From the sequence record OZ035738.1: a stretch of DNA of 42,999 nucleotides, one strand, 5' to 3'. The notes beneath the pieces are model-generated. The model saw nothing but the letters and a program-made list of their open reading frames with translations. It made no database searches and was not told where the DNA came from. Below are positions 4,351-37,857 of the stretch, in pieces. The DNA is from Kagunavirus LM08P2. The position numbers and the translations under genes are program-made. The stretch's first letter is position 1. Each line of letters begins with the position of its first letter.

Positions 4351-4378
4351 AAAGGCCCCATTACGGGGCCTTAGTTTT
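4351..4378. terminator. Bidirectional intrinsic terminator between convergent genes
   Basis: AAGGCCCC-ATTAC-GGGGCCTT hairpin flanked by A-run upstream and T-run downstream, between + gene ending 4348 and - gene ending 4377. Confidence 0.6.
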
Positions 4379-4622
4379 ATCGCACTCTCATAAATAGCTT
4401 ACCTTTGCGCTGTAACAAATCCATGCCAACTGCACCTTCACCAGATTTGTTCGGACGGCGCATTAAACTAAAGTTCCATACTCTAGCTTTTGAAGCATCT
4501 TTCGCATTGCACACCCAAAGTCTGCCGCTTTCTCTTAGGTCAAATAAGTCCGATATACTGAAATTATTAACCGGTATGAACCCGCTAATGAACTCACGTT
4601 CGCAACTAGGTAATTCCTGCAT
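4377..4622 (-). CDS. Hypothetical protein, opposite-strand insert in head module
   Basis: 81-aa ORF on minus strand with strong SD (GAGGAGGG) upstream of ATG at 4622 and its own promoter at 4649-4677. Confidence 0.5.
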   Translation of the reverse strand: MQELPSCEREFISGFIPVNNFSISDLFDLRESGRLWVCNAKDASKARVWNFSLMRRPNKSGEGAVGMDLLQRKGKLFMRVR

Positions 4623-4648
4623 ACACCCTCCTCGTTTCGATGTAATGA

Positions 4649-4677
4649 ATAGTACCCTATTATATTGGTGTGTGCAA
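4649..4677 (-). promoter_or_regulatory. Sigma70-like promoter, family 2 (TTGCAC-N17-TACTAT)
   Basis: Read on minus strand: TTGCACACACCAATATAATAGGGTACTAT; near-identical copies at 13790-13818(-), 36393-36421(+), 37829-37857(+). Confidence 0.5.
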
Positions 4678-11737: not shown

Positions 11738-11768
11738 CTAAGGCCCCTTTCGGGGCCTTTTTCTTACT
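11738..11768. terminator. Bidirectional intrinsic terminator
   Basis: AAGGCCCC-TTTC-GGGGCCTTTTTCTT with A-rich 5' flank; sits between + major tail gene and - cassette. Confidence 0.7.
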
Positions 11769-11994
11769 CATCAATATTGCTTCGGTATTCCCGTAACTTC
11801 TCCAGACTTTCAATTGCTTCCGCTAAGTCGGTTCCGGTGTCCTTGTGTCCGCGCAAGCCCATGCACAATAGCTTCTTCAATGCGTGCTGTAGCGCCGGGT
11901 CGCGTATATCGAAGGCGCGGAGCACATCATAAACGTCTACTGTCATAGTGCTGCCGTGAGTGTTTGTCATTGTGCGGTTGTATTTTGAAGTCAT
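11764..11994 (-). CDS. Hypothetical protein (76 aa)
   Basis: Last gene of minus-strand cassette; ATGA overlap with upstream gene. Confidence 0.45.
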   Translation of the reverse strand: MTSKYNRTMTNTHGSTMTVDVYDVLRAFDIRDPALQHALKKLLCMGLRGHKDTGTDLAEAIESLEKLREYRSNIDE

Positions 11995-12242
11995 AAATGG
12001 CTCTCATCTATAAGAACGATAACTGCCGAAATCGAAACGGCACCTACATATAAAAGACGCATCTCGGTCGGCGCTATAGCGGTAACAGCTTCGTACAGGC
12101 CCGAGAACACGGACAAATCCATAGAGATAAATGTTAAGACCGCCGCCATTCCTAGTACCGCGGTGGATAAAACCAGTAAAACCAGTAAAACCAGTAAAAC
12201 CACAACAGGCATTATGGCGAAAATCCACAAGGCTTTAATCAT
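11991..12242 (-). CDS. Small membrane protein with VLL repeat
   Basis: 83 aa, two hydrophobic segments; N-terminal (VLL)n tract encoded by a 9-bp tandem repeat; ATGA overlap with upstream gene. Confidence 0.5.
   Translation of the reverse strand: MIKALWIFAIMPVVVLLVLLVLLVLSTAVLGMAAVLTFISMDLSVFSGLYEAVTAIAPTEMRLLYVGAVSISAVIVLIDESHL
12173..12199. repeat. 9-bp tandem repeat CCAGTAAAA x3 perfect (plus partial flanking copies)
   Basis: Read directly; in frame within the 11991-12242 gene, encoding repeated Val-Leu-Leu. Confidence 0.85.
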
Positions 12243-13369
12243 CCCAGCATCTCCGGTGAAATAGTTAAACGTGCGACCTCGCCATATTCGGCGCTATAAG
12301 TAATTACATTTGCGCTACGACCCGACATCCAGCCGCCTCTGGAGGCGTAGGCGTCTTTAGCCGCTAAGGTTCGATGTTGCTCGACAACCATGTTACGGCT
12401 TTCTACAATCTTTTGATGGTGCAGGTGGCCTACGTGGGCGTAGCTGTAAACACTCTCGCCGAACGCTTTGCGGAACTTAGCTATCATAATTGGTTCGATA
12501 GCGTCGAAGCGTGCTTTATGTCCGTGGTGAAAGAACAGCGTCGTTTTGCCGTGTTGGACCATCTTGTAAACATCCGGCGACGTATCGACGAACACACGCG
12601 GCTCATTGTCGTACAGCGTACTGAACATCTCAGCTAACCAAATCATTCCGCTCTCGTCGTGGTTCCCTTGCACAATAAGCAAGCGAACATTTTTATGTTT
12701 AACCAGCGCCATATCGATAACACGGCGGACCATACGAATCATGTAGCGGACCAGTTTCTGATAGCGCGTGTCAGCGTCAAGAACATGACCACTCGCCGGT
12801 GTAACCGCATCCAGACTATCAAAGTGTGCGAAGTCCCCCAGCAGGTTAATAACTCCTGTTCCTGCATCTGGTGCTTTCTGAAACGCAGCATCGAACCACC
12901 GAGAGAACAGGTCTTCCGCAATCTTCATGTCCCAGTCGTCGCCGCTCTCGTCGGCCCAGGCAAGCATACCGAGATGGAAATCAGATACCGTGTAAAGATT
13001 GAGTAGCTTGTCGTCGCGTTTGGCTCGAGTCGCTTTAGCCGGCGCAACTGGCGTAATCTCTGACTTCATGCCTTCAATCACGGCTTTCATCAACTCGACC
13101 TGACGTTCAGCGTCGGTGTCTGTCTTAACCCATTGCAACTTAGTATTGCCGAACTCGTCTACCAGAGACGACGTCCCTTTAATCTTGTAGCCGTCTGGGA
13201 CAAGGTGGCTAACGTCGCGCCCGTGGCCCACGCCTTTCTTAGCCAGCTTCGCTTTACGGATACGAATAACGCGGTCTGAGATGCCGTATTTACGGGCTAT
13301 ATCGATATTCTTCATTCCGGCGTTCAATTCTTCCTGTAACTGTTCGTCGGTTATTTTCTTCCGGGCCAT
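12239..13369 (-). CDS. HTH-fused calcineurin-like metallophosphoesterase (SbcD/Mre11- or CpdA-like fold)
   Basis: Motifs in order DFHLG, GDFAHFD, GNHD, HHGH, GHLHH match the metallophosphoesterase signature; N-terminal ITDEQLQEELNAGMKNIDIARKYGISDRVI looks like a helix-turn-helix; likely start ATG 13369 with SD GAGGAAG (track start 13420 lacks an SD). Confidence 0.6.
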   Translation of the reverse strand: MARKKITDEQLQEELNAGMKNIDIARKYGISDRVIRIRKAKLAKKGVGHGRDVSHLVPDGYKIKGTSSLVDEFGNTKLQWVKTDTDAERQVELMKAVIEGMKSEITPVAPAKATRAKRDDKLLNLYTVSDFHLGMLAWADESGDDWDMKIAEDLFSRWFDAAFQKAPDAGTGVINLLGDFAHFDSLDAVTPASGHVLDADTRYQKLVRYMIRMVRRVIDMALVKHKNVRLLIVQGNHDESGMIWLAEMFSTLYDNEPRVFVDTSPDVYKMVQHGKTTLFFHHGHKARFDAIEPIMIAKFRKAFGESVYSYAHVGHLHHQKIVESRNMVVEQHRTLAAKDAYASRGGWMSGRSANVITYSAEYGEVARLTISPEMLG

Positions 13370-13434
13370 GCTTACTTCCTCGTGTTTAGGATTTGTCCTA
13401 TTTAACCACAGTGCATTCATTTAAATAAAGGCGA

Positions 13435-13761
13435 CTATTTACTTTCCACGCCTATCGCCCACCCAGTCATTACCATTTGCAGACGGGTAGCTGTTAGTAG
13501 GCTGTAGAACGCGTCCCCGTTTTTCTCTACTGAACGTATCACCGTGTATGTTACGGCTTGCGGGGGTAGACCCGATTTACCAACCTCTACGGCGGCCTCA
13601 CACTCACGAACTGTAGAGTCCTTGAATGCCTTTACAATAGTAGGGTCAGCTTTCTTAAGCACGCCAGAAGTCATAAGAACAGATTCGCTAAATACCTGTT
13701 CGCACGGAGATCCAAAAGTAGCAAAAGACATAAACCCCAGAGCTAATACTAATTTACGCAT
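13435..13761 (-). CDS. Secreted/periplasmic small protein
   Basis: 108 aa; N-terminal signal-peptide-like MRKLVLALGFMSFATFGS; SD GAGGA; first gene downstream of promoter 13790-13818. Confidence 0.5.
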   Translation of the reverse strand: MRKLVLALGFMSFATFGSPCEQVFSESVLMTSGVLKKADPTIVKAFKDSTVRECEAAVEVGKSGLPPQAVTYTVIRSVEKNGDAFYSLLTATRLQMVMTGWAIGVESK

Positions 13762-13789
13762 AATTATTTCCTCAGTAAGTTACAAGTGA

Positions 13790-13818
13790 ATAGTACCCTA
13801 TTATATTGGGGTGTGCAA
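13790..13818 (-). promoter_or_regulatory. Sigma70-like promoter, family 2
   Basis: On minus strand TTGCACACCCCAATATAATAGGGTACTAT; drives the 13761-to-11764 cassette. Confidence 0.5.
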
Positions 13819-13925
13819 GTAGTGTGCTAGAATAAGTTTGCGCCTAGTGTCGCACACGAAAAGCGGGTGGTTCCCGTCTGGCGCGTCAACCTTAACCTGT
13901 AACCTCTTAACCAAAGGATTAAAGA

Positions 13926-14342
13926 ATGAAACTTTCTGATTTTTATTTTGCGGACCGCCACGCTGCTGGCACTAAAATGCCTATCCTTCTGCCGAGTGGT
14001 AAAGACTCCGGTGAATGGTTGCAGGTCATTGGCCCAGATTGTGATGCTGGTGTTCGTGCAGGCCGCGCCTACACAACGGCAATTCGACGCCTTACGGAAG
14101 AACTTGCACCATTAGATAAAGAGTGCGAGGCGCTGAATAACTGGGCGCGCTATAACGATGAGAAGGGCTGGCGGGTTATGGACCTGAACAAGCAGCTCGC
14201 CGTGGAAATCGTCACCGGTTGGTCATTCGACGAACCGTTCAGCAAAGAGGCGCTGGCTAACCTGTTTGACCAGTACAGTGGGCTGGCAGAGGCCGTAGTT
14301 AAGCACCATACGGATAGCCGTGAGAAACTCTCGGAAAAGTAA
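13926..14342 (+). CDS. Tail assembly chaperone (putative)
   Basis: 138-aa ORF immediately upstream of tape measure gene with SD AAGGA; followed by a -1-frame ORF. Confidence 0.5.
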   Translation: MKLSDFYFADRHAAGTKMPILLPSGKDSGEWLQVIGPDCDAGVRAGRAYTTAIRRLTEELAPLDKECEALNNWARYNDEKGWRVMDLNKQLAVEIVTGWSFDEPFSKEALANLFDQYSGLAEAVVKHHTDSREKLSEK

Positions 14343-14431
14343 AAGCGCTGTATGAATTTGCGCAATGGTGCTTTGTCGACCGCCAGAAACGTAAGCAATT
14401 CGACGACATCGCGGCAGGGCATCAAGCAGCT

Positions 14432-14704
14432 TTGATCGCAATGGGTGTGATTAAAGAACCGCAGATGAAAGAAGCGACGGGGCCAGAATGCCCCGTTTCT
14501 CTTATCGACGTGTTCGAGAAATACCGTGCCATTAAATTCCTACAGCGCGAAACAGATGATACTATCGTTATAATCCCGCGCGATGCGCTCAAATGGCAAG
14601 ATTTGGTAGCGTTTCGTGATGTCGCCGGTTACGGCATAAGTTTGTTCGAAGCCGAGGTTATCATGGGCTTAGACGGAATATTTGAGGGCAGAGAAGATGG
14701 CTGA
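14432..14704 (+). CDS. Tail assembly chaperone second frame (possible frameshift extension)
   Basis: Frame is -1 relative to 13926-14342 and open from 14324; no ATG with SD until 14441; track start 14432 is TTG. Confidence 0.35.
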   Translation: MIAMGVIKEPQMKEATGPECPVSLIDVFEKYRAIKFLQRETDDTIVIIPRDALKWQDLVAFRDVAGYGISLFEAEVIMGLDGIFEGREDG

Positions 14705-17006
14705 TACGGCTTCCCTAATTGCCAGAGTAAAAACAGAAGGCGCTGATGTAGCCGCTAAACAGCTTGACGCTATGGCGGCATCCGCAGACCGTGCGGACAC
14801 ATCCGTAAACAAACTAACGCCGGATGTTAATAAAGTAAACTCCGCTACGTCTAAAGCGGCTTCTGACGGTTTCGCTAAATTCCGTAACGCCGCCGGGCAG
14901 GTAGGCTTCCAGGTGCAGGACATGGTCGTCCAGTTGCAGTCCGGCACGTCTGCATTCGTAGCAATCGGGCAACAAGGCTCTCAGCTTGCGGGTGCTTTCG
15001 GCCCTGGTGGCGCGGTGCTTGGGGCTGTAATTGCTCTCGCATCAGCAATTGGCGGTGTCCTGTATAAATCACTAACGGAGGCCGAAGGTAGCTCAAAAGA
15101 CCTCGAGGCCGCGCAAAAGCAGTTAAAAGACACCTTCCAACAAACGGCATCCGGCTCTCTCGAACTGACAGACGGCCTTATCCAGCTTACCCAAATAAGC
15201 CGAGAAGCGGCGGAGACTCAACTTGCTTTGGCTAAGGCTAACGCAGACCTTATCGCGCAGCAAACAGCTAAAGCCGTTCGTGAGGACGCAGAGTCGTGGG
15301 AGACGTGGAAAGCCTCCACGGCATCAGCTATCAGCCAGTACGATGCATTGGTCTCTAAAGGTGCGGATGTAGGCGACACGTTAGAAAAACTCGGTGGCAC
15401 TTACGAGGGTAACATCGTAGGCGTCAACATGCTGGCGCAGAATATCGCAGAGCTTAGCAGTAAGTTTGGGGTTAACCGTGACCAGGCGCTGGAGATGATA
15501 GCGGCGCAGAGTGCGTTTAACAAAGAGCCAACCGCCGAGAATGCCCGTCGCATCGCCGATGTGTTTACCGACTGGCTCGGTAATACAAAACAGTTGAACC
15601 CGGAACTTATCCGCCTGACCGACAATGCCAACAAGAACGCCACGGCACTGGAGAACGCGGAGAAGTCCGCAAACGCGGCGGCGGAGGCCCAAAAGAATCT
15701 TGGTCGTAACGTCAACTCAACAACGCAGAGATTCCAGGAACAGAACGAAGCTATCGTCAAAAACCAGCAAATCGCTATCTTAAGTGACCGCGAGCGTATC
15801 CGTGCGCAAGCTGAACTGGATAAGCAGGCGTTCGCTAAACGTGAAGCTGTCACCAAAGAACAGATCGCCGCGTATAATGCTGCGCGTGACACGGAAGCAC
15901 AACAAGACATCGCTCGCATCGACGCTACCGAAAAAGCGAAGGCCGACCGCGAGGCCAAATCGAACGAGAAACGGCTGGCGGCACAAGCCAAACGCGAAGA
16001 AACGGCGGCTGAACGACAGAAAAAAGCGGCGGAAGATTTCCTGGCTACTGTCGACCGCACAACCGGAGATGAGATTTCGCGCATTACCGCTGCGGAAGAG
16101 CAGAAACTGGCAAAACTGGAAGAGTTTAACAGAGCTGGGACTATAAGCCAGCAGCAATACGAAAACGCCAGGACGCAGATTATGCTCTCGGCCGAACAGG
16201 CCCGCCAGGAAGAACTCGCCAAGCGAGAGAAAGAACGACAGGAGAAGAACCAGAAAGGCGAAGACTTCATGGCTCAGATTATGGGCCAAAACGCCGCTGA
16301 GCTTGAGCTTCTGGAGATTCAGGAGCAACAAAAACTGGACGTTGCTGACAGGTATCGCGAACAGAATCTGATTAACGAAGAACAGTACCAGGCCGCGGTT
16401 AATGCTATAAATGACCAGTACGCGTTAAAACGTGCTAACGCAACGGGTAACGCTTTTGGCATGATGGCGGATAATATTAAATCGTCGCTTGGCGAAGCGT
16501 CTACTGCGTACAAAGCTTTCGCTATTGCGCAGGCCACTATTGCCACATACACCTCCGCTATAGAGGCTTATAAATCTGCATCGGCTATCCCTATTGTTGG
16601 ATGGGTGCTCGGGCCTGTAGCCGCCGCCGCCGCCGTAGCCGCGGGGCTCGCAAACATTGGCAAAATTCGTTCGGCCCGTGAGCAGGGCGGTAACTTAGCT
16701 GCAGGTCAGTTATCTACTATCGCGGAACGTAACAAGCCAGAAGTTATTATGCCTGCAGGGGCGTCACGCGTCCGTACCGCAGAACAGATGCGCCAGATTA
16801 TGGGCGAGAACGGCAACAAGTCAGGCGGTGACAGCGTTACAATCGTCAACAACACCACCGGACGTGTTGATTCCGCCGTTACAGAGCGTGACGACGAAGG
16901 GCGGTTACGTGTTATCATCAGCGAAACAGTATCGGCGGCGTTACAAGACAGCAACAGTGCAATCTCTAAGTCACGCCGTGCTACACGAAACCAGCCGGGG
17001 TATTAA
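14697..17006 (+). CDS. Tail tape measure protein
   Basis: About 770 aa, long Ala/Gln/Glu-rich predicted coiled coils, hydrophobic Gly/Ala segment near C-terminus; ATG 14697 with SD; follows chaperone pair. Confidence 0.75.
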   Translation: MADTASLIARVKTEGADVAAKQLDAMAASADRADTSVNKLTPDVNKVNSATSKAASDGFAKFRNAAGQVGFQVQDMVVQLQSGTSAFVAIGQQGSQLAGAFGPGGAVLGAVIALASAIGGVLYKSLTEAEGSSKDLEAAQKQLKDTFQQTASGSLELTDGLIQLTQISREAAETQLALAKANADLIAQQTAKAVREDAESWETWKASTASAISQYDALVSKGADVGDTLEKLGGTYEGNIVGVNMLAQNIAELSSKFGVNRDQALEMIAAQSAFNKEPTAENARRIADVFTDWLGNTKQLNPELIRLTDNANKNATALENAEKSANAAAEAQKNLGRNVNSTTQRFQEQNEAIVKNQQIAILSDRERIRAQAELDKQAFAKREAVTKEQIAAYNAARDTEAQQDIARIDATEKAKADREAKSNEKRLAAQAKREETAAERQKKAAEDFLATVDRTTGDEISRITAAEEQKLAKLEEFNRAGTISQQQYENARTQIMLSAEQARQEELAKREKERQEKNQKGEDFMAQIMGQNAAELELLEIQEQQKLDVADRYREQNLINEEQYQAAVNAINDQYALKRANATGNAFGMMADNIKSSLGEASTAYKAFAIAQATIATYTSAIEAYKSASAIPIVGWVLGPVAAAAAVAAGLANIGKIRSAREQGGNLAAGQLSTIAERNKPEVIMPAGASRVRTAEQMRQIMGENGNKSGGDSVTIVNNTTGRVDSAVTERDDEGRLRVIISETVSAALQDSNSAISKSRRATRNQPGY

Positions 17007-23805: not shown

Positions 23806-23832
23806 TAAGGCCCCATTTGGGGCCTTTTCTCT
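23806..23832. terminator. Bidirectional intrinsic terminator
   Basis: AAGGCCCC-ATTT-GGGGCCTTTTCTCT with A-run upstream; between convergent modules. Confidence 0.7.
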
Positions 23833-26548: not shown

Positions 26549-26863
26549 TTATAATTCCTTATATTGTTGGGGTATGTGCTTACTATAATAGTCTGCTATT
26601 AGGGTGTCAATCTGTTTTATCGAACCAACGACAAAAACATTCGCGCCACGTTTACGCATCCGCTCGTGCTCGCGTAACTGGTGTGGGTCTGGCTTCGTGC
26701 TTTCATCTTTCTTAACCTCAACGAACCAGATGATGCCGCCGGGGAGGATTACCAACAGGTCGGGCGCTCCGTTTCGGCCCTCATACACTATCTTACGAAC
26801 GAGGCCCCCCAGGGCCTCGAATCGGTCTTTCGCGTATTTCTGTACGCGGCCCTCTTTAGTCAT
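26549..26863 (-). CDS. VRR-NUC domain nuclease
   Basis: PD-(D/E)XK-like core GAPDLLVILPGGIIWFVEVKK; start uncertain (ATG 26863 or TTG 26878). Confidence 0.55.
   Translation of the reverse strand: MTKEGRVQKYAKDRFEALGGLVRKIVYEGRNGAPDLLVILPGGIIWFVEVKKDESTKPDPHQLREHERMRKRGANVFVVGSIKQIDTLIADYYSKHIPQQYKEL
26582..26610 (-). promoter_or_regulatory. Sigma70-like promoter, family 1 (TTGACA-N17-TATAGT)
   Basis: On minus strand TTGACACCCTAATAGCAGACTATTATAGT; lies inside the 3' end of the VRR-NUC gene. Confidence 0.5.
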
Positions 26864-29504: not shown

Positions 29505-29532
29505 GTAAAAAGGCCCAATGAAGGGCCTTAGT
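29505..29532 (-). terminator. Intrinsic terminator (minus strand)
   Basis: On minus strand AAGGCCC-TTCATT-GGGCCTTTTTACT, downstream of SSB-like gene. Confidence 0.55.
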
Positions 29533-30245: not shown

Positions 30246-30274
30246 ACTATAATAGCTAACTATTCAGGTGTCAA
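30246..30274 (-). promoter_or_regulatory. Sigma70-like promoter, family 1
   Basis: On minus strand TTGACACCTGAATAGTTAGCTATTATAGT upstream of SSB-like gene. Confidence 0.5.
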
Positions 30275-32867: not shown

Positions 32868-32897
32868 ACTATAATAGCGAACTATTCATGTTGTCAA
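32868..32897 (-). promoter_or_regulatory. Sigma70-like promoter, family 1
   Basis: On minus strand TTGACAACATGAATAGTTCGCTATTATAGT (18-bp spacer). Confidence 0.5.
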
Positions 32898-36392: not shown

Positions 36393-36421
36393 TTGCACAC
36401 ACCAACATAATAGGATACTAT
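36393..36421 (+). promoter_or_regulatory. Sigma70-like promoter, family 2
   Basis: TTGCACACACCAACATAATAGGATACTAT upstream of 36456 gene. Confidence 0.5.
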
Positions 36422-36455
36422 TCACTTATAGAAACGAGACAGAGGAGTGAGGGTT

Positions 36456-37828: not shown

Positions 37829-37857
37829 TTGCACACACAGATATAATAGACTACTAT
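37829..37857 (+). promoter_or_regulatory. Sigma70-like promoter, family 2
   Basis: TTGCACACACAGATATAATAGACTACTAT upstream of 37887 gene. Confidence 0.5.

Follow-up and report, generated by a model that had tools for sequence, protein, structure and literature searches.

Phage morons are independently transcribed accessory genes found within late operons, including lom and bor of phage lambda, the morons of HK97, and cor of phage T1. Stand-alone phage metallophosphoesterases (MPEs) have been described in cluster-A mycobacteriophages, where Bxb1 gp47 and A10ZJ24 gp48 are encoded with DNA-replication genes, and in experiments these proteins have been connected with DNA replication, with a weak exonuclease activity, and with counter-defence or the degradation of host DNA. 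In bacteria, the MPE domain of Clostridium thermocellum Pnkp removes 2′,3′-phosphate, and the MPE of P. putida is encoded within an Lhr-ligase repair cluster. The locus presented here, an opposite-strand island in the tail module of Kagunavirus LM08P2 (OZ035738.1; the 42,999-nt stretch analysed is hereafter “the window”), can be set beside each of these systems.

The first-pass annotation had described four minus-strand genes enclosed by a bidirectional terminator and a promoter of their own, and all four open reading frames (ORFs) were recovered as described (Table 1). Each is also kept intact in other phages (98 records for sp108, 2039 for the HTH-metallophosphoesterase, hereafter MPE, 7 for tm83, and 773 for p76). 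For MPE, a longer ORF starting from 13420 is also present; the ATG at 13369 is preceded by a GAGGA motif 7 nt upstream, and homologs are 376 aa long. The same annotation regarded the genes as translationally coupled, which is consistent with the ATGA overlaps at the MPE/tm83 and tm83/p76 junctions but not with the organization of the first two genes, as sp108 and MPE are 65 nt apart and MPE has its own Shine-Dalgarno site.

Table 1. Features of the opposite-strand island and related elements in the window.
Feature	Position	Strand	Remarks
Four-gene island	between tail-tube gene and tail-chaperone genes	-	E. coli phage (Kagunavirus)
Rho-independent terminator hairpin	11740..11759	both	bidirectional; stops transcription of the tail-tube gene (plus strand) and of the island (minus strand)
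p76	11764-11994	-	76 aa, soluble; intact ORF; widespread small early-type phage protein
tm83	11991-12242	-	83 aa, polytopic membrane protein; intact ORF; rare accessory gene
Tandem repeat, (VLL)n	12168..12202	-	9-nt unit x3.9 in first membrane segment of tm83; TRF score 70, 100% matches
MPE	12239-13369	-	376 aa, HTH-metallophosphoesterase; intact ORF; the island's constant core (Kagunavirus, Jerseyvirus)
MPE catalytic domain	12242..13015	-	residues 119-376; complete dinuclear metal site
MPE HTH domain	13238..13348	-	residues 8-44, LuxR/GerE/sigma-70 region 4-like; AF2 helices 8-16, 21-28, 32-44
sp108	13435-13761	-	108 aa, exported, helical; intact ORF
Island promoter	13790..13818	-	TTGCAC-N17-TACTAT; 29-nt early-type promoter present in four copies
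Sibling promoter, head module	4649..4677	-	predicted to drive another opposite-strand small ORF, 4377-4622 (81 aa)
Sibling promoter	36393..36421	+	ahead of a small plus-strand early-gene array starting at 36447
Sibling promoter	37829..37857	+	ahead of a second small plus-strand early-gene array

The predicted island promoter (TTGCACACCCCAATATAATAGGGTACTAT) matches the sigma-70 consensus at 8 of 12 positions and was missed by a generic promoter scan. That it is of the early-gene type, as initially proposed, is supported by the recurrence of the element: TTGCAY-N17-TAYTAT is found four times in the window, against 0.01 matches expected, with near-identity across all 29 nt, and two of the four copies stand ahead of small early-gene arrays. 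From Kagunavirus to Jerseyvirus, the two hexamers have been kept while the spacer has diverged. A perfect TATAAT within this spacer (13801-13806) was rejected as the actual -10 element, since it is not conserved in Jerseyvirus. At the opposite end of the island, the terminator is a hairpin (AAGGCCCC-TTTC-GGGGCCTT) with a GC-rich 8-bp stem, detected on both strands, and this hairpin is kept as AAGGCCCC-N4-GGGGCCTT in 41 of 43 related loci. Because the motif occurs again at 23807 and, with two mismatches, at 29510, it is the generic terminator type of this phage; other operons in the window end with the same motif, and the idea that the hairpin marks a mobile MPE unit was hence rejected. Separately, an adjacent element in the window scored 27.7 bits against a partial Rfam int-alpA RNA model (RF02996), for which the gathering threshold is 35.8, and full-model scores in relatives were 36.6 (L010, passing this threshold), 33.5 (L043), and 32.6 (L009).

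The junction between the tube and chaperone genes is an insertion (recombination) hotspot: it is empty in some relatives, encodes a single small protein of the exported or Imm type in others, and elsewhere carries as many as five small genes. Across the 46 loci retrieved with MPE, the upstream slot is occupied by an Imm gene in 30 cases, by sp108 in 11, and by neither in 5. The downstream part, in the 43 loci extending as far as the tube gene, consists of a phosphatase and a dNMP kinase without p76 (16 loci), p76 alone (13), p76 with an HNH gene (5), p76 with an antirepressor (4), nothing (3), or tm83 with p76 (2). As retrieval with MPE makes its constant presence in these loci circular, we retested it with the tube gene as anchor: MPE was present in every locus whose tube protein was 89% identical or more (32 of 32) and in none of those at 64-76% identity (0 of 19). 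These 19 loci held Imm only, an sp108-like protein only, small gaps, or an empty site of ~95 bp (L135/L136), and the sp108-like protein is an sp108 homolog (hhalign 98.7%). In two close relatives (L041/L071), MPE is located in the head module, at the site of the head-module promoter copy of the window, and there too it has a terminator of this type and a promoter-like site (TTGCGT-N17-TAGTAT) of its own. Finally, the Serratia phage Smarc3 is syntenic and has no MPE homolog, which suggests that MPE is dispensable at the family level.

These comparisons separate two ideas that the first-pass annotation had combined in its description of an accessory, moron-like insertion, for which it had suggested looking for variable presence in relatives. 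The independent opposite-strand unit with an early promoter type stands, and the site is indeed empty or differently filled in relatives. The notion of one coherent four-gene operon does not, as MPE relocates (L041/L071), sp108 occurs at the junction without MPE, tm83 is rare, and p76 is replaced in 16 of 43 loci. Judged from sequence comparison, the parts of the island assort independently, and it is a patchwork of swappable parts rather than one purpose-built operon.

The largest of these parts, MPE, is a divergent member of the metallophosphoesterase (calcineurin-like) superfamily. Its AF2 model (pLDDT 93.6) comprises a 3-helix N-terminal domain and an MPE domain with the predicted beta-sandwich fold of the superfamily, in agreement with the HTH-fused metallophosphoesterase first proposed. 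The five superfamily motifs, tested as D-x-H, G-D, G-N-H-[DE], H, and G-H-x-H, are present (SDFH, GDFAH, GNHD, HHGH, and GHLHH), and all metal-site residues (D130, H132, D179, N236, H237, H282, and H317), along with G178 and G314, are invariant across 73 diverse homologs. Pfam Metallophos_2 and Metallophos matches scored below their gathering scores (22 bits vs 27, and 18.7 vs 21.5), matches of the HTH domain to GerE were weak (Pfam E 0.012; family profile against PDB 1fse E 0.04), and PDB sequence searches with either the single sequence or a profile gave nothing significant (family profile against Mre11/SbcD, E 0.2-0.8). By structure search, the closest folds are the Mre11/SbcD and PolD-DP1 nucleases, i.e. 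a nuclease-type MPE core. The model lacks a C-terminal capping (DNA-specificity) domain of the Mre11 type, and a Rad50/SbcC partner was found neither in Bas75, a close relative with an annotated genome, nor in the replication module of the window when its large ORFs were checked. The signature of PPP Ser/Thr phosphatases of the lambda phosphatase type (GDxHG, GDxVDRG, GNHE) is not matched by MPE, and membership in the Bxb1 gp47/A10ZJ24 gp48 family was rejected (hhalign probability 6.5%, motifs III-V only). The PolA of this phage has a weak 3′-5′ exonuclease-domain signal, and a proofreading role for MPE is thus not needed on its face, though MPE may still have one.

Full-length MPE homologs were detected in about 2,000 phage genomes from many families, and this family (phrog_704) includes 4,669 clusters at 50% identity. 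Given this distribution, and its association with genes of DNA and nucleotide metabolism, MPE belongs to a widespread family and is not the lineage-specific moron initially suggested. The position of homologs varies in other phages, with copies in the head module, in the lysis region, and in the region of DNA metabolism, and their neighbours include dNMP kinase, HAD phosphatase, MazG-like pyrophosphohydrolase, thymidylate synthase, dCMP deaminase, nucleoside deoxyribosyltransferase-like protein, RNR, and dUTPase, as well as ligase, endonuclease VII, and methylases. Specifically, a HAD_PNKP-type phosphatase (PF25109, E 1.6e-19) stands beside MPE homologs in K1G-type Kagunaviruses, Webervirus, and Ralstonia phage Reminis, and ATP-dependent DNA ligases are found beside or near them in Reminis and Campylobacter phage Los1. 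The P-loop protein accompanying the HAD phosphatase is of the dNMP-kinase family (phrog_139, E 1e-44) and not a polynucleotide kinase, which points to nucleotide salvage. A T4-type healing module (HAD_PNKP phosphatase and P-loop kinase) is present in K1G-type relatives and absent from the window, where no gene for a ligase, a kinase, or a HAD phosphatase was identified. One MPE homolog carries the PDB label of the P. putida MPE. A search of the literature found no functional study of the phrog_704 family, no experiment on the four island proteins or close homologs, no usable virion proteomics, transcriptome, or essentiality data for the region, and nothing usable on T1 host-DNA-degradation genes or escape mutants mapping to the MPE family.

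The promoter-proximal gene, sp108, encodes a predicted signal-peptide protein, as the initial reading had it, with an MRK n-region, a hydrophobic core, and a conserved cleavage-type site; it has two invariant cysteines, and its mature part is predicted to form a small helical bundle. In this slot, sp108 alternates with an Imm_superinfect gene (PF14373, E 2.3e-15), to which it has no Pfam match even at E ≤ 10, so the equivalence is positional only. DUF3718, the annotation of one sp108 homolog, matched neither sp108 nor two Jerseyvirus homologs at E ≤ 10, and an ORF at the junction of the Serratia phage was rejected as a homolog (hhalign probability 0.6%) and is an analogue only. Judging from its export signals and its position-for-position alternation with Imm-type genes, sp108 would most likely have its place of action at the cell envelope, where it may, for instance, block the entry of a second phage. 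Superinfection exclusion, first suggested for the cassette as a whole, thus gains positional support for sp108.

Among the two remaining genes, tm83 is the membrane protein with a (VLL)n repeat already described, with long hydrophobic segments at residues 1-47 and 59-81. It is inserted between the two ATGA junctions and is found in only 7 phage records; Bas75 has no tm83, and there the MPE and p76 genes overlap directly. An otherwise identical homolog (L017) is 6 residues, i.e. 2 repeat units, shorter, indicating that the repeat copy number is polymorphic. No family match was obtained for tm83 in searches including Pfam, NCBIfam, and PADLOC, and neither NCBIfam nor PADLOC returned a match for any island protein. 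The p76 family spans many phage families, and its members in Drexlerviridae are free-standing genes in small early-gene arrays, away from MPE, hence p76 was rejected as a fixed MPE partner. It had no Pfam family match, and two further assignments were rejected, namely a DUF3310/SaV-like protein (0 of 24 aligned members matching at E ≤ 10) and the C-terminal domain of a 184-aa P-loop protein of K1G-type phages (no BLASTP alignment). It is in K1G-type phages that the phosphatase and dNMP kinase pair replaces p76.

Taken together, we propose, with a probability of about one half, that this region is an early-transcribed, backwards gene island at a recombination hotspot, in which MPE is likely an early DNA-directed nuclease or phosphodiesterase and sp108 acts at the envelope. 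The modular contents, the shared 29-nt promoter, and the standard bidirectional terminator form the observed part of this explanation. Host RNA polymerase would transcribe the island early, a timing that we infer from promoter sharing, in the direction opposite to that of the late structural operon, yielding four products. Of these, sp108 would be a small helical protein that is exported and contains a disulfide, tm83 a small and rarely occurring membrane protein, and p76 a widespread small early protein. MPE would be a Mn2+/Mg2+-dependent enzyme of early phage DNA metabolism, as suggested by its intact two-metal site, its Mre11/SbcD and PolD-DP1 fold, its LuxR/sigma-region-4-type DNA-binding domain, and its metabolic neighbours elsewhere. 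It may break down or process DNA, either the host chromosome or DNA ends, with products that would feed the dNMP salvage or repair enzymes accompanying it in other phages, and it would aid growth yet be dispensable. Several observations weigh against a nuclease, including the insignificant sequence similarity to any solved MPE, the missing Mre11 capping domain and Rad50/SbcC partner, and a likeness to the experimentally studied mycobacteriophage MPEs that is only at the superfamily level. DNA as the substrate is also challenged by pairs of HAD and calcineurin-like proteins that can act on free nucleotides, as in PUA-Cal-HAD.

The cassette could alternatively be a single accessory, moron-like operon for superinfection exclusion, host modification, or counter-defence, with MPE degrading an immune signalling nucleotide. 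Its own promoter and terminator, its opposite orientation, the empty sites in relatives, the alternation between sp108 and an Imm-type gene, the dispensability of MPE at the family level (Smarc3), and the presence of Rv0805-type cyclic-nucleotide phosphodiesterases among the top Foldseek matches would all fit, and a phage MPE with a counter-defence phenotype is known (PMC12287305). We consider it unlikely, however, given that the four genes assort independently, that the MPE family is ancient, widespread, and set among DNA and nucleotide metabolism genes rather than anti-defence islands, that its N-terminal DNA-binding-type domain is conserved family-wide, and that no PADLOC or defence-related match was found. 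A role in tail assembly or in the virion would explain why, in every close relative, the cassette lies at one fixed place, between the tube and chaperone genes. This reading is close to refuted: the island lies on the opposite strand behind an early-type promoter and encodes an enzyme, an exported protein, and a membrane protein, with no virion-linked feature; the same tail genes occur in relatives with empty or differently filled sites, Smarc3 builds the same tail module without MPE, and MPE is located outside of the tail module in other phages. None of the four proteins would thus be expected to take part in tail assembly.

Two other readings concern the substrate of MPE. It could be an end-healing enzyme, i.e. 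a 3′-phosphatase or 2′,3′-cyclic phosphodiesterase similar to the MPE of bacterial Pnkp, which would clean damaged DNA or RNA ends for rejoining and thereby repair damage inflicted by host nucleases. The HAD_PNKP-type phosphatases and DNA ligases next to homologs, the activity of the C. thermocellum Pnkp domain, and the genomic context of the P. putida MPE argue for this role, which we nonetheless regard as still less likely than the accessory operon: the window phage lacks a ligase, kinase, and HAD phosphatase, and the accompanying P-loop protein elsewhere is of the dNMP-kinase type. Alternatively, MPE could hydrolyse free nucleotides (e.g. dNDPs, dNTPs, or NTPs) and remodel nucleotide pools, with the HTH domain serving regulation or localisation. 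This would be consistent with neighbours such as dNMP kinase, MazG-like protein, dCMP deaminase, RNR, and dUTPase, and with the PUA-Cal-HAD defence system, in which dADP and dATP are hydrolysed by a calcineurin-like enzyme that is paired with a HAD phosphatase. We place it lower again, since the best structural neighbours are nucleic-acid nucleases, the conserved DNA-binding-type domain would be left unexplained, and Pfam, PDB, and NCBIfam searches detected no sequence similarity to nucleotide pyrophosphatases.

Kagunaviruses and Jerseyviruses are therapy and biocontrol phages in wide use, now included in the BASEL model collection. For engineers, an early, modular, and partly dispensable island shows swappable cargo sites, i.e. 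the tube/chaperone junction and the head-module site, each with a predicted ready-made promoter and terminator. In small siphophages, this very widespread HTH-phosphoesterase may also account for the breakdown of host DNA or for the supply of nucleotides, and the exported sp108 may mediate phage-phage exclusion. A bolder and tentative version of our proposal, which we rather doubt, is that phrog_704 represents a new class of single-subunit, DNA-tethered nuclease, and sp108 a new periplasmic exclusion factor interchangeable with Imm. If so, the phrog_704 enzyme would perform early host-chromosome breakdown and dNMP salvage, thereby also blunting host defences, across T1-like, Jersey-like, Dhillon-like, and many marine phages, and in Guernseyvirinae it would hop between early-promoter “landing pads” within the late operon.

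Compared with known systems, the island resembles phage morons in having its own promoter and terminator between two structural genes, variable content with empty sites among relatives, and exported or membrane products in its variable slots. Unlike morons, it belongs to a virulent phage and hence has no prophage expression, being driven instead by the phage’s own early promoter type, and the largest gene encodes an enzyme of the DNA-metabolism type that is widely conserved, not a lineage-specific add-on. The Imm proteins annotated in Jerseyviruses share the promoter-proximal slot with sp108, and both are small and predicted to be envelope-targeted; sp108 has no sequence similarity to Imm, however, and is predicted to be a soluble, helical, periplasmic-type protein with a cleaved signal, whereas Imm is predicted to be a membrane protein. 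MPE itself is 10-17% identical in sequence to Mre11/SbcD and to the PolD DP1 proofreading exonuclease, and differs from them by the lack of a capping domain and of a Rad50/SbcC or polymerase partner, as well as by an additional N-terminal module made of the HTH domain and a beta-hairpin. Bxb1 gp47 and A10ZJ24 gp48 are similarly stand-alone phage MPEs with Mre11 and DP1 as top structural neighbours, but they are 255 aa long, have no HTH domain, and come from phages of another host phylum. Finally, the P. putida MPE nuclease and the bacterial Pnkp MPE domain are found beside ligases, kinases, and phosphatases, as are the MPE homologs of some phages.

The island, the opposite-strand cassette between the tail-tube and tail-chaperone genes (11764-13818), is modular, and the tube/chaperone junction that holds it is a hotspot. 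Megablast of the 2.4-kb region matched 417 phage records, led by Kagunavirus LM08P1 (93.8% over 100%) and followed by the BASEL phages Bas70-76, K1G/K1H and many Salmonella Jerseyviruses, which identifies the window as the genome, some 43 kb long, of a Kagunavirus (Guernseyvirinae). Based on the annotated relative Bas75, the plus strand reads terminase, head, tail tube, island, tail chaperones, tape measure and tailspike; the replication module on the minus strand and arrays of small early genes on the plus strand come next. All four minus-strand ORFs described in the first-pass annotation are present, each with a plausible Shine-Dalgarno site. For the helix-turn-helix (HTH) metallophosphoesterase (MPE, hereafter the enzyme), a start at 13369 was favoured over an ATG at 13420 because it is preceded at 7 nt by GAGGA and the great majority of homologs are 376 aa long. 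The term "translationally coupled operon" fits the last three genes only, which are joined by ATGA overlaps (MPE/tm83 and tm83/p76), whereas sp108 and the enzyme gene lie 65 nt apart.

Coordinates of the island genes and regulatory features in the window
Feature	Position	Strand	Remarks
sp108	13435-13761	-	108-aa exported protein
Enzyme	12239-13369	-	376-aa HTH-MPE
tm83	11991-12242	-	83-aa membrane protein
p76	11764-11994	-	76-aa protein
Terminator hairpin	11740-11759	both	detected on both strands, kept in relatives
Island promoter	13790-13818	-	TTGCAC-N17-TACTAT
29-nt promoter copies	36393 and 37829		upstream of small plus-strand early-gene arrays
Fourth 29-nt promoter copy	4649-4677	-	upstream of opposite-strand small ORF, head module
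Second opposite-strand unit	4377-4677	-	81-aa ORF (4377-4622) behind exact 29-nt early promoter copy
Near-consensus promoters	32868-32897, 30246-30274, 26582-26610	-	TTGACA-N17/18-TATAGT, 11/12 matches; inside replication module

The proposed bidirectional terminator was recovered as a hairpin whose pattern, AAGGCCCC-N4-GGGGCCTT, is kept in 41 of 43 related loci. The motif also closes two other window junctions, at 23807 and, with 2 mismatches, at 29510, and this hairpin type is thus the phage's general terminator. In relatives, the 4-nt loop of the hairpin (11748-11751) is seen in either orientation, GAAA or TTTC, and in variants, as though recombination had flipped the palindrome. The island promoter is a weak sigma-70 match (8/12) not picked up by a generic promoter scan; when intergenic regions from Kagunavirus and Jerseyvirus are aligned, both hexamers are kept and the spacer diverges. 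The window contains four TTGCAY-N17-TAYTAT sites against 0.01 expected, near-identical across the full 29 nt, and two siblings of the island element precede early-gene arrays, which confirms the early-gene promoter type originally assigned to it. The replication module uses a different, stronger promoter type, which forms a second class, separate from the early 29-nt element. A plus-strand block (13840-13884) shortly before the first tail-chaperone gene (13926) is invariant from Kagunavirus to Jerseyvirus. It scored 27.7 bits against Rfam int-alpA (RF02996), under the gathering score of 35.8, and the full model was found on the chaperone-gene strand in three related loci (L010, 36.6 bits, above threshold; L043, 33.5; L009, 32.6). 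The MFE z-score of the block was not significant; it could control the downstream tail genes as a structured 5' leader or an sRNA.

Variable presence was assessed in 46 Guernseyvirinae-type loci retrieved with the enzyme, 43 of which reach the tube gene. In 11 loci sp108 fills the promoter-proximal slot, in 30 an Imm_superinfect protein (PF14373, Imm) does so, and 5 have neither. Downstream of the enzyme, the 43 loci carry p76 alone (13), p76 with an HNH gene (5), p76 with an antirepressor (4), tm83 with p76 (2), a HAD phosphatase and dNMP kinase without p76 (16), or nothing (3). Because this retrieval made the constant presence of the enzyme circular, a second set was anchored on the tail-tube protein: the enzyme was found in 32/32 loci with a tube protein at least 89% identical, and at the junction in 0/19 loci with one 64-76% identical. 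These 19 junctions hold Imm only, an sp108 homolog only (hhalign 98.7%; sometimes with other small minus-strand genes), an antirepressor or a short gap, or are empty, as in two loci (L135/L136) with about 95 bp and no genes. The cassette is therefore variable among related phages, with junctions empty or differently filled. Among cultured Salmonella phages, the enzyme is effectively universal (373 records vs 359 with the tube protein). No enzyme homolog is present in the complete Smarc3 genome (Serratia phage vB_SmaS-Smarc3, MT980832.1), whose head, tail and replication modules are syntenic with the window. In the 490-bp gap between the major tail and chaperone genes of Smarc3 lies an unannotated 108-aa ORF (16602-16928, minus strand) with a signal peptide and two cysteines, which is an analogue of sp108 in size, features and position, with no detectable homology.

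One junction without a phosphoesterase (L130, 6179-7424, minus strand) carries five small ORFs of 62, 65, 122, 74 and 104 aa, the 122-aa one an sp108 homolog and the 62-aa one with an N-terminal membrane helix. The adjacent tail-chaperone genes (13926-14704, plus strand; loci L009-L070) exist as two alleles of about 50% protein identity: sp108 accompanies window-type chaperones (99-100% identical) and Imm the other allele. That the allele tracks the slot while the phosphoesterase stays 93-98% identical beside both indicates that a mosaic breakpoint separates the enzyme gene from the upstream slot.

The enzyme gene also occurs elsewhere. In two loci (L041, L071) with head proteins 77-92% identical to the window's, it is 83-85% identical and lies in the head module, where it runs antisense to the structural genes and is flanked by the head-decoration and spanin genes, with a TTGCGT-N17-TAGTAT site of its own and a terminator of the same type. 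This is the site of the window's other early-promoter unit, whose 81-aa ORF had no match in a PHROG search.

Among the smaller products, sp108 has the typical signal sequence previously noted and two invariant cysteines, and its family is found only in Guernseyvirinae-type phages (98 records; 22 clusters). It matched no Pfam, NCBIfam or PADLOC family, and its mature domain is predicted as a small helical bundle (pLDDT 79) for which no specific structural relative was found. Since it alternates with an Imm-type gene, and no other kind of product persists at the junction across the wider family as much as small exported proteins, an envelope-level exclusion role is plausible, the sole functional lead being positional; Imm itself is treated only as a prediction in the Jerseyvirus literature. 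tm83, known from 7 phage records only, has two long hydrophobic stretches, and the repeat reported in its gene is a 9-nt tandem repeat differing by two units from an otherwise identical relative. p76 matched no Pfam family but has homologs in 773 phage records across many families, which in Drexlerviridae are free-standing small genes inside early small-gene arrays. Its identification as DUF3310 was ruled out by family search, and a BLASTP comparison without any alignment ruled out that it corresponds to the C-terminal part of the P-loop protein found in K1G-type phages.

The enzyme (phrog_704, "DNA repair exonuclease") showed no significant sequence similarity to any solved protein. A confident AF2 model (pLDDT 93.6) upholds the HTH-MPE fusion, with a three-helix HTH (8-44), a conserved beta-hairpin and helix, and an MPE domain (119-376). 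All the metal-binding motifs are unchanged across 73 homologs, which share 33-49% identity with the enzyme. The family spans 2039 phage records and 4,669 clusters at 50% identity, and full-length HTH+MPE is kept in Drexlerviridae, Dhillonvirus, Webervirus, Casjensviridae, Autographiviridae, N4-like, Vibrio and Campylobacter phages. Membership tests for Mre11/SbcD, PPP phosphatases, gp47 and Pnkp came out against each; the model has no capping domain, and no Rad50/SbcC partner was found.

Genomic position varies among homologs, and gene company is consistent. A HAD phosphatase and dNMP kinase follow in K1G-type Kagunavirus and Webervirus; in Ralstonia phage Reminis, endonuclease VII lies upstream and a HAD phosphatase, MazG-like pyrophosphohydrolase and DNA ligase come after; a ligase precedes the homolog in Campylobacter phage Los1; and in a Vibrio phage a deoxyribosyltransferase-like protein and pyrophosphohydrolase follow. 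Nearby genes elsewhere encode dCMP deaminase, thymidylate synthase, dUTPase, RNR and Dam-type methylases. Our preferred reading is that the enzyme is an early DNA-directed nuclease or phosphodiesterase of phage DNA/nucleotide metabolism, with a probability of about 50% that DNA is the substrate. Alternatively, it could act in end-healing, hydrolyse free nucleotides or degrade signal nucleotides, the last being the suggestion of the first-pass annotation. In the recently described PUA-Cal-HAD system, Cal+HAD pairs can act on dNTPs.

Accessory genes that lie inside a structural operon on the opposite strand are well known, and hundreds of GenBank records already give the island genes generic annotations; the most promising aspect is what the very widespread HTH-MPE family does biochemically. 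Overall, the original observation is confirmed, and its interpretation as a moron-like cassette for superinfection exclusion, host modification or counter-defence is supported in part. Functional precedents come from two stand-alone phage MPEs that have been studied experimentally, although the enzyme is no member of their family (hhalign 6.5%). One is the product of the early gene gp48 of A10ZJ24, which breaks down DNA, disrupts the genome of the host and has a counter-defence phenotype (PMC12287305). Like a moron, the island has its own promoter and terminator and is variably present; unlike one, it resides in a virulent phage, is driven by the phage's early promoter type, and has a main gene that codes for an ancient enzyme of wide distribution and has come to lie in the late region.
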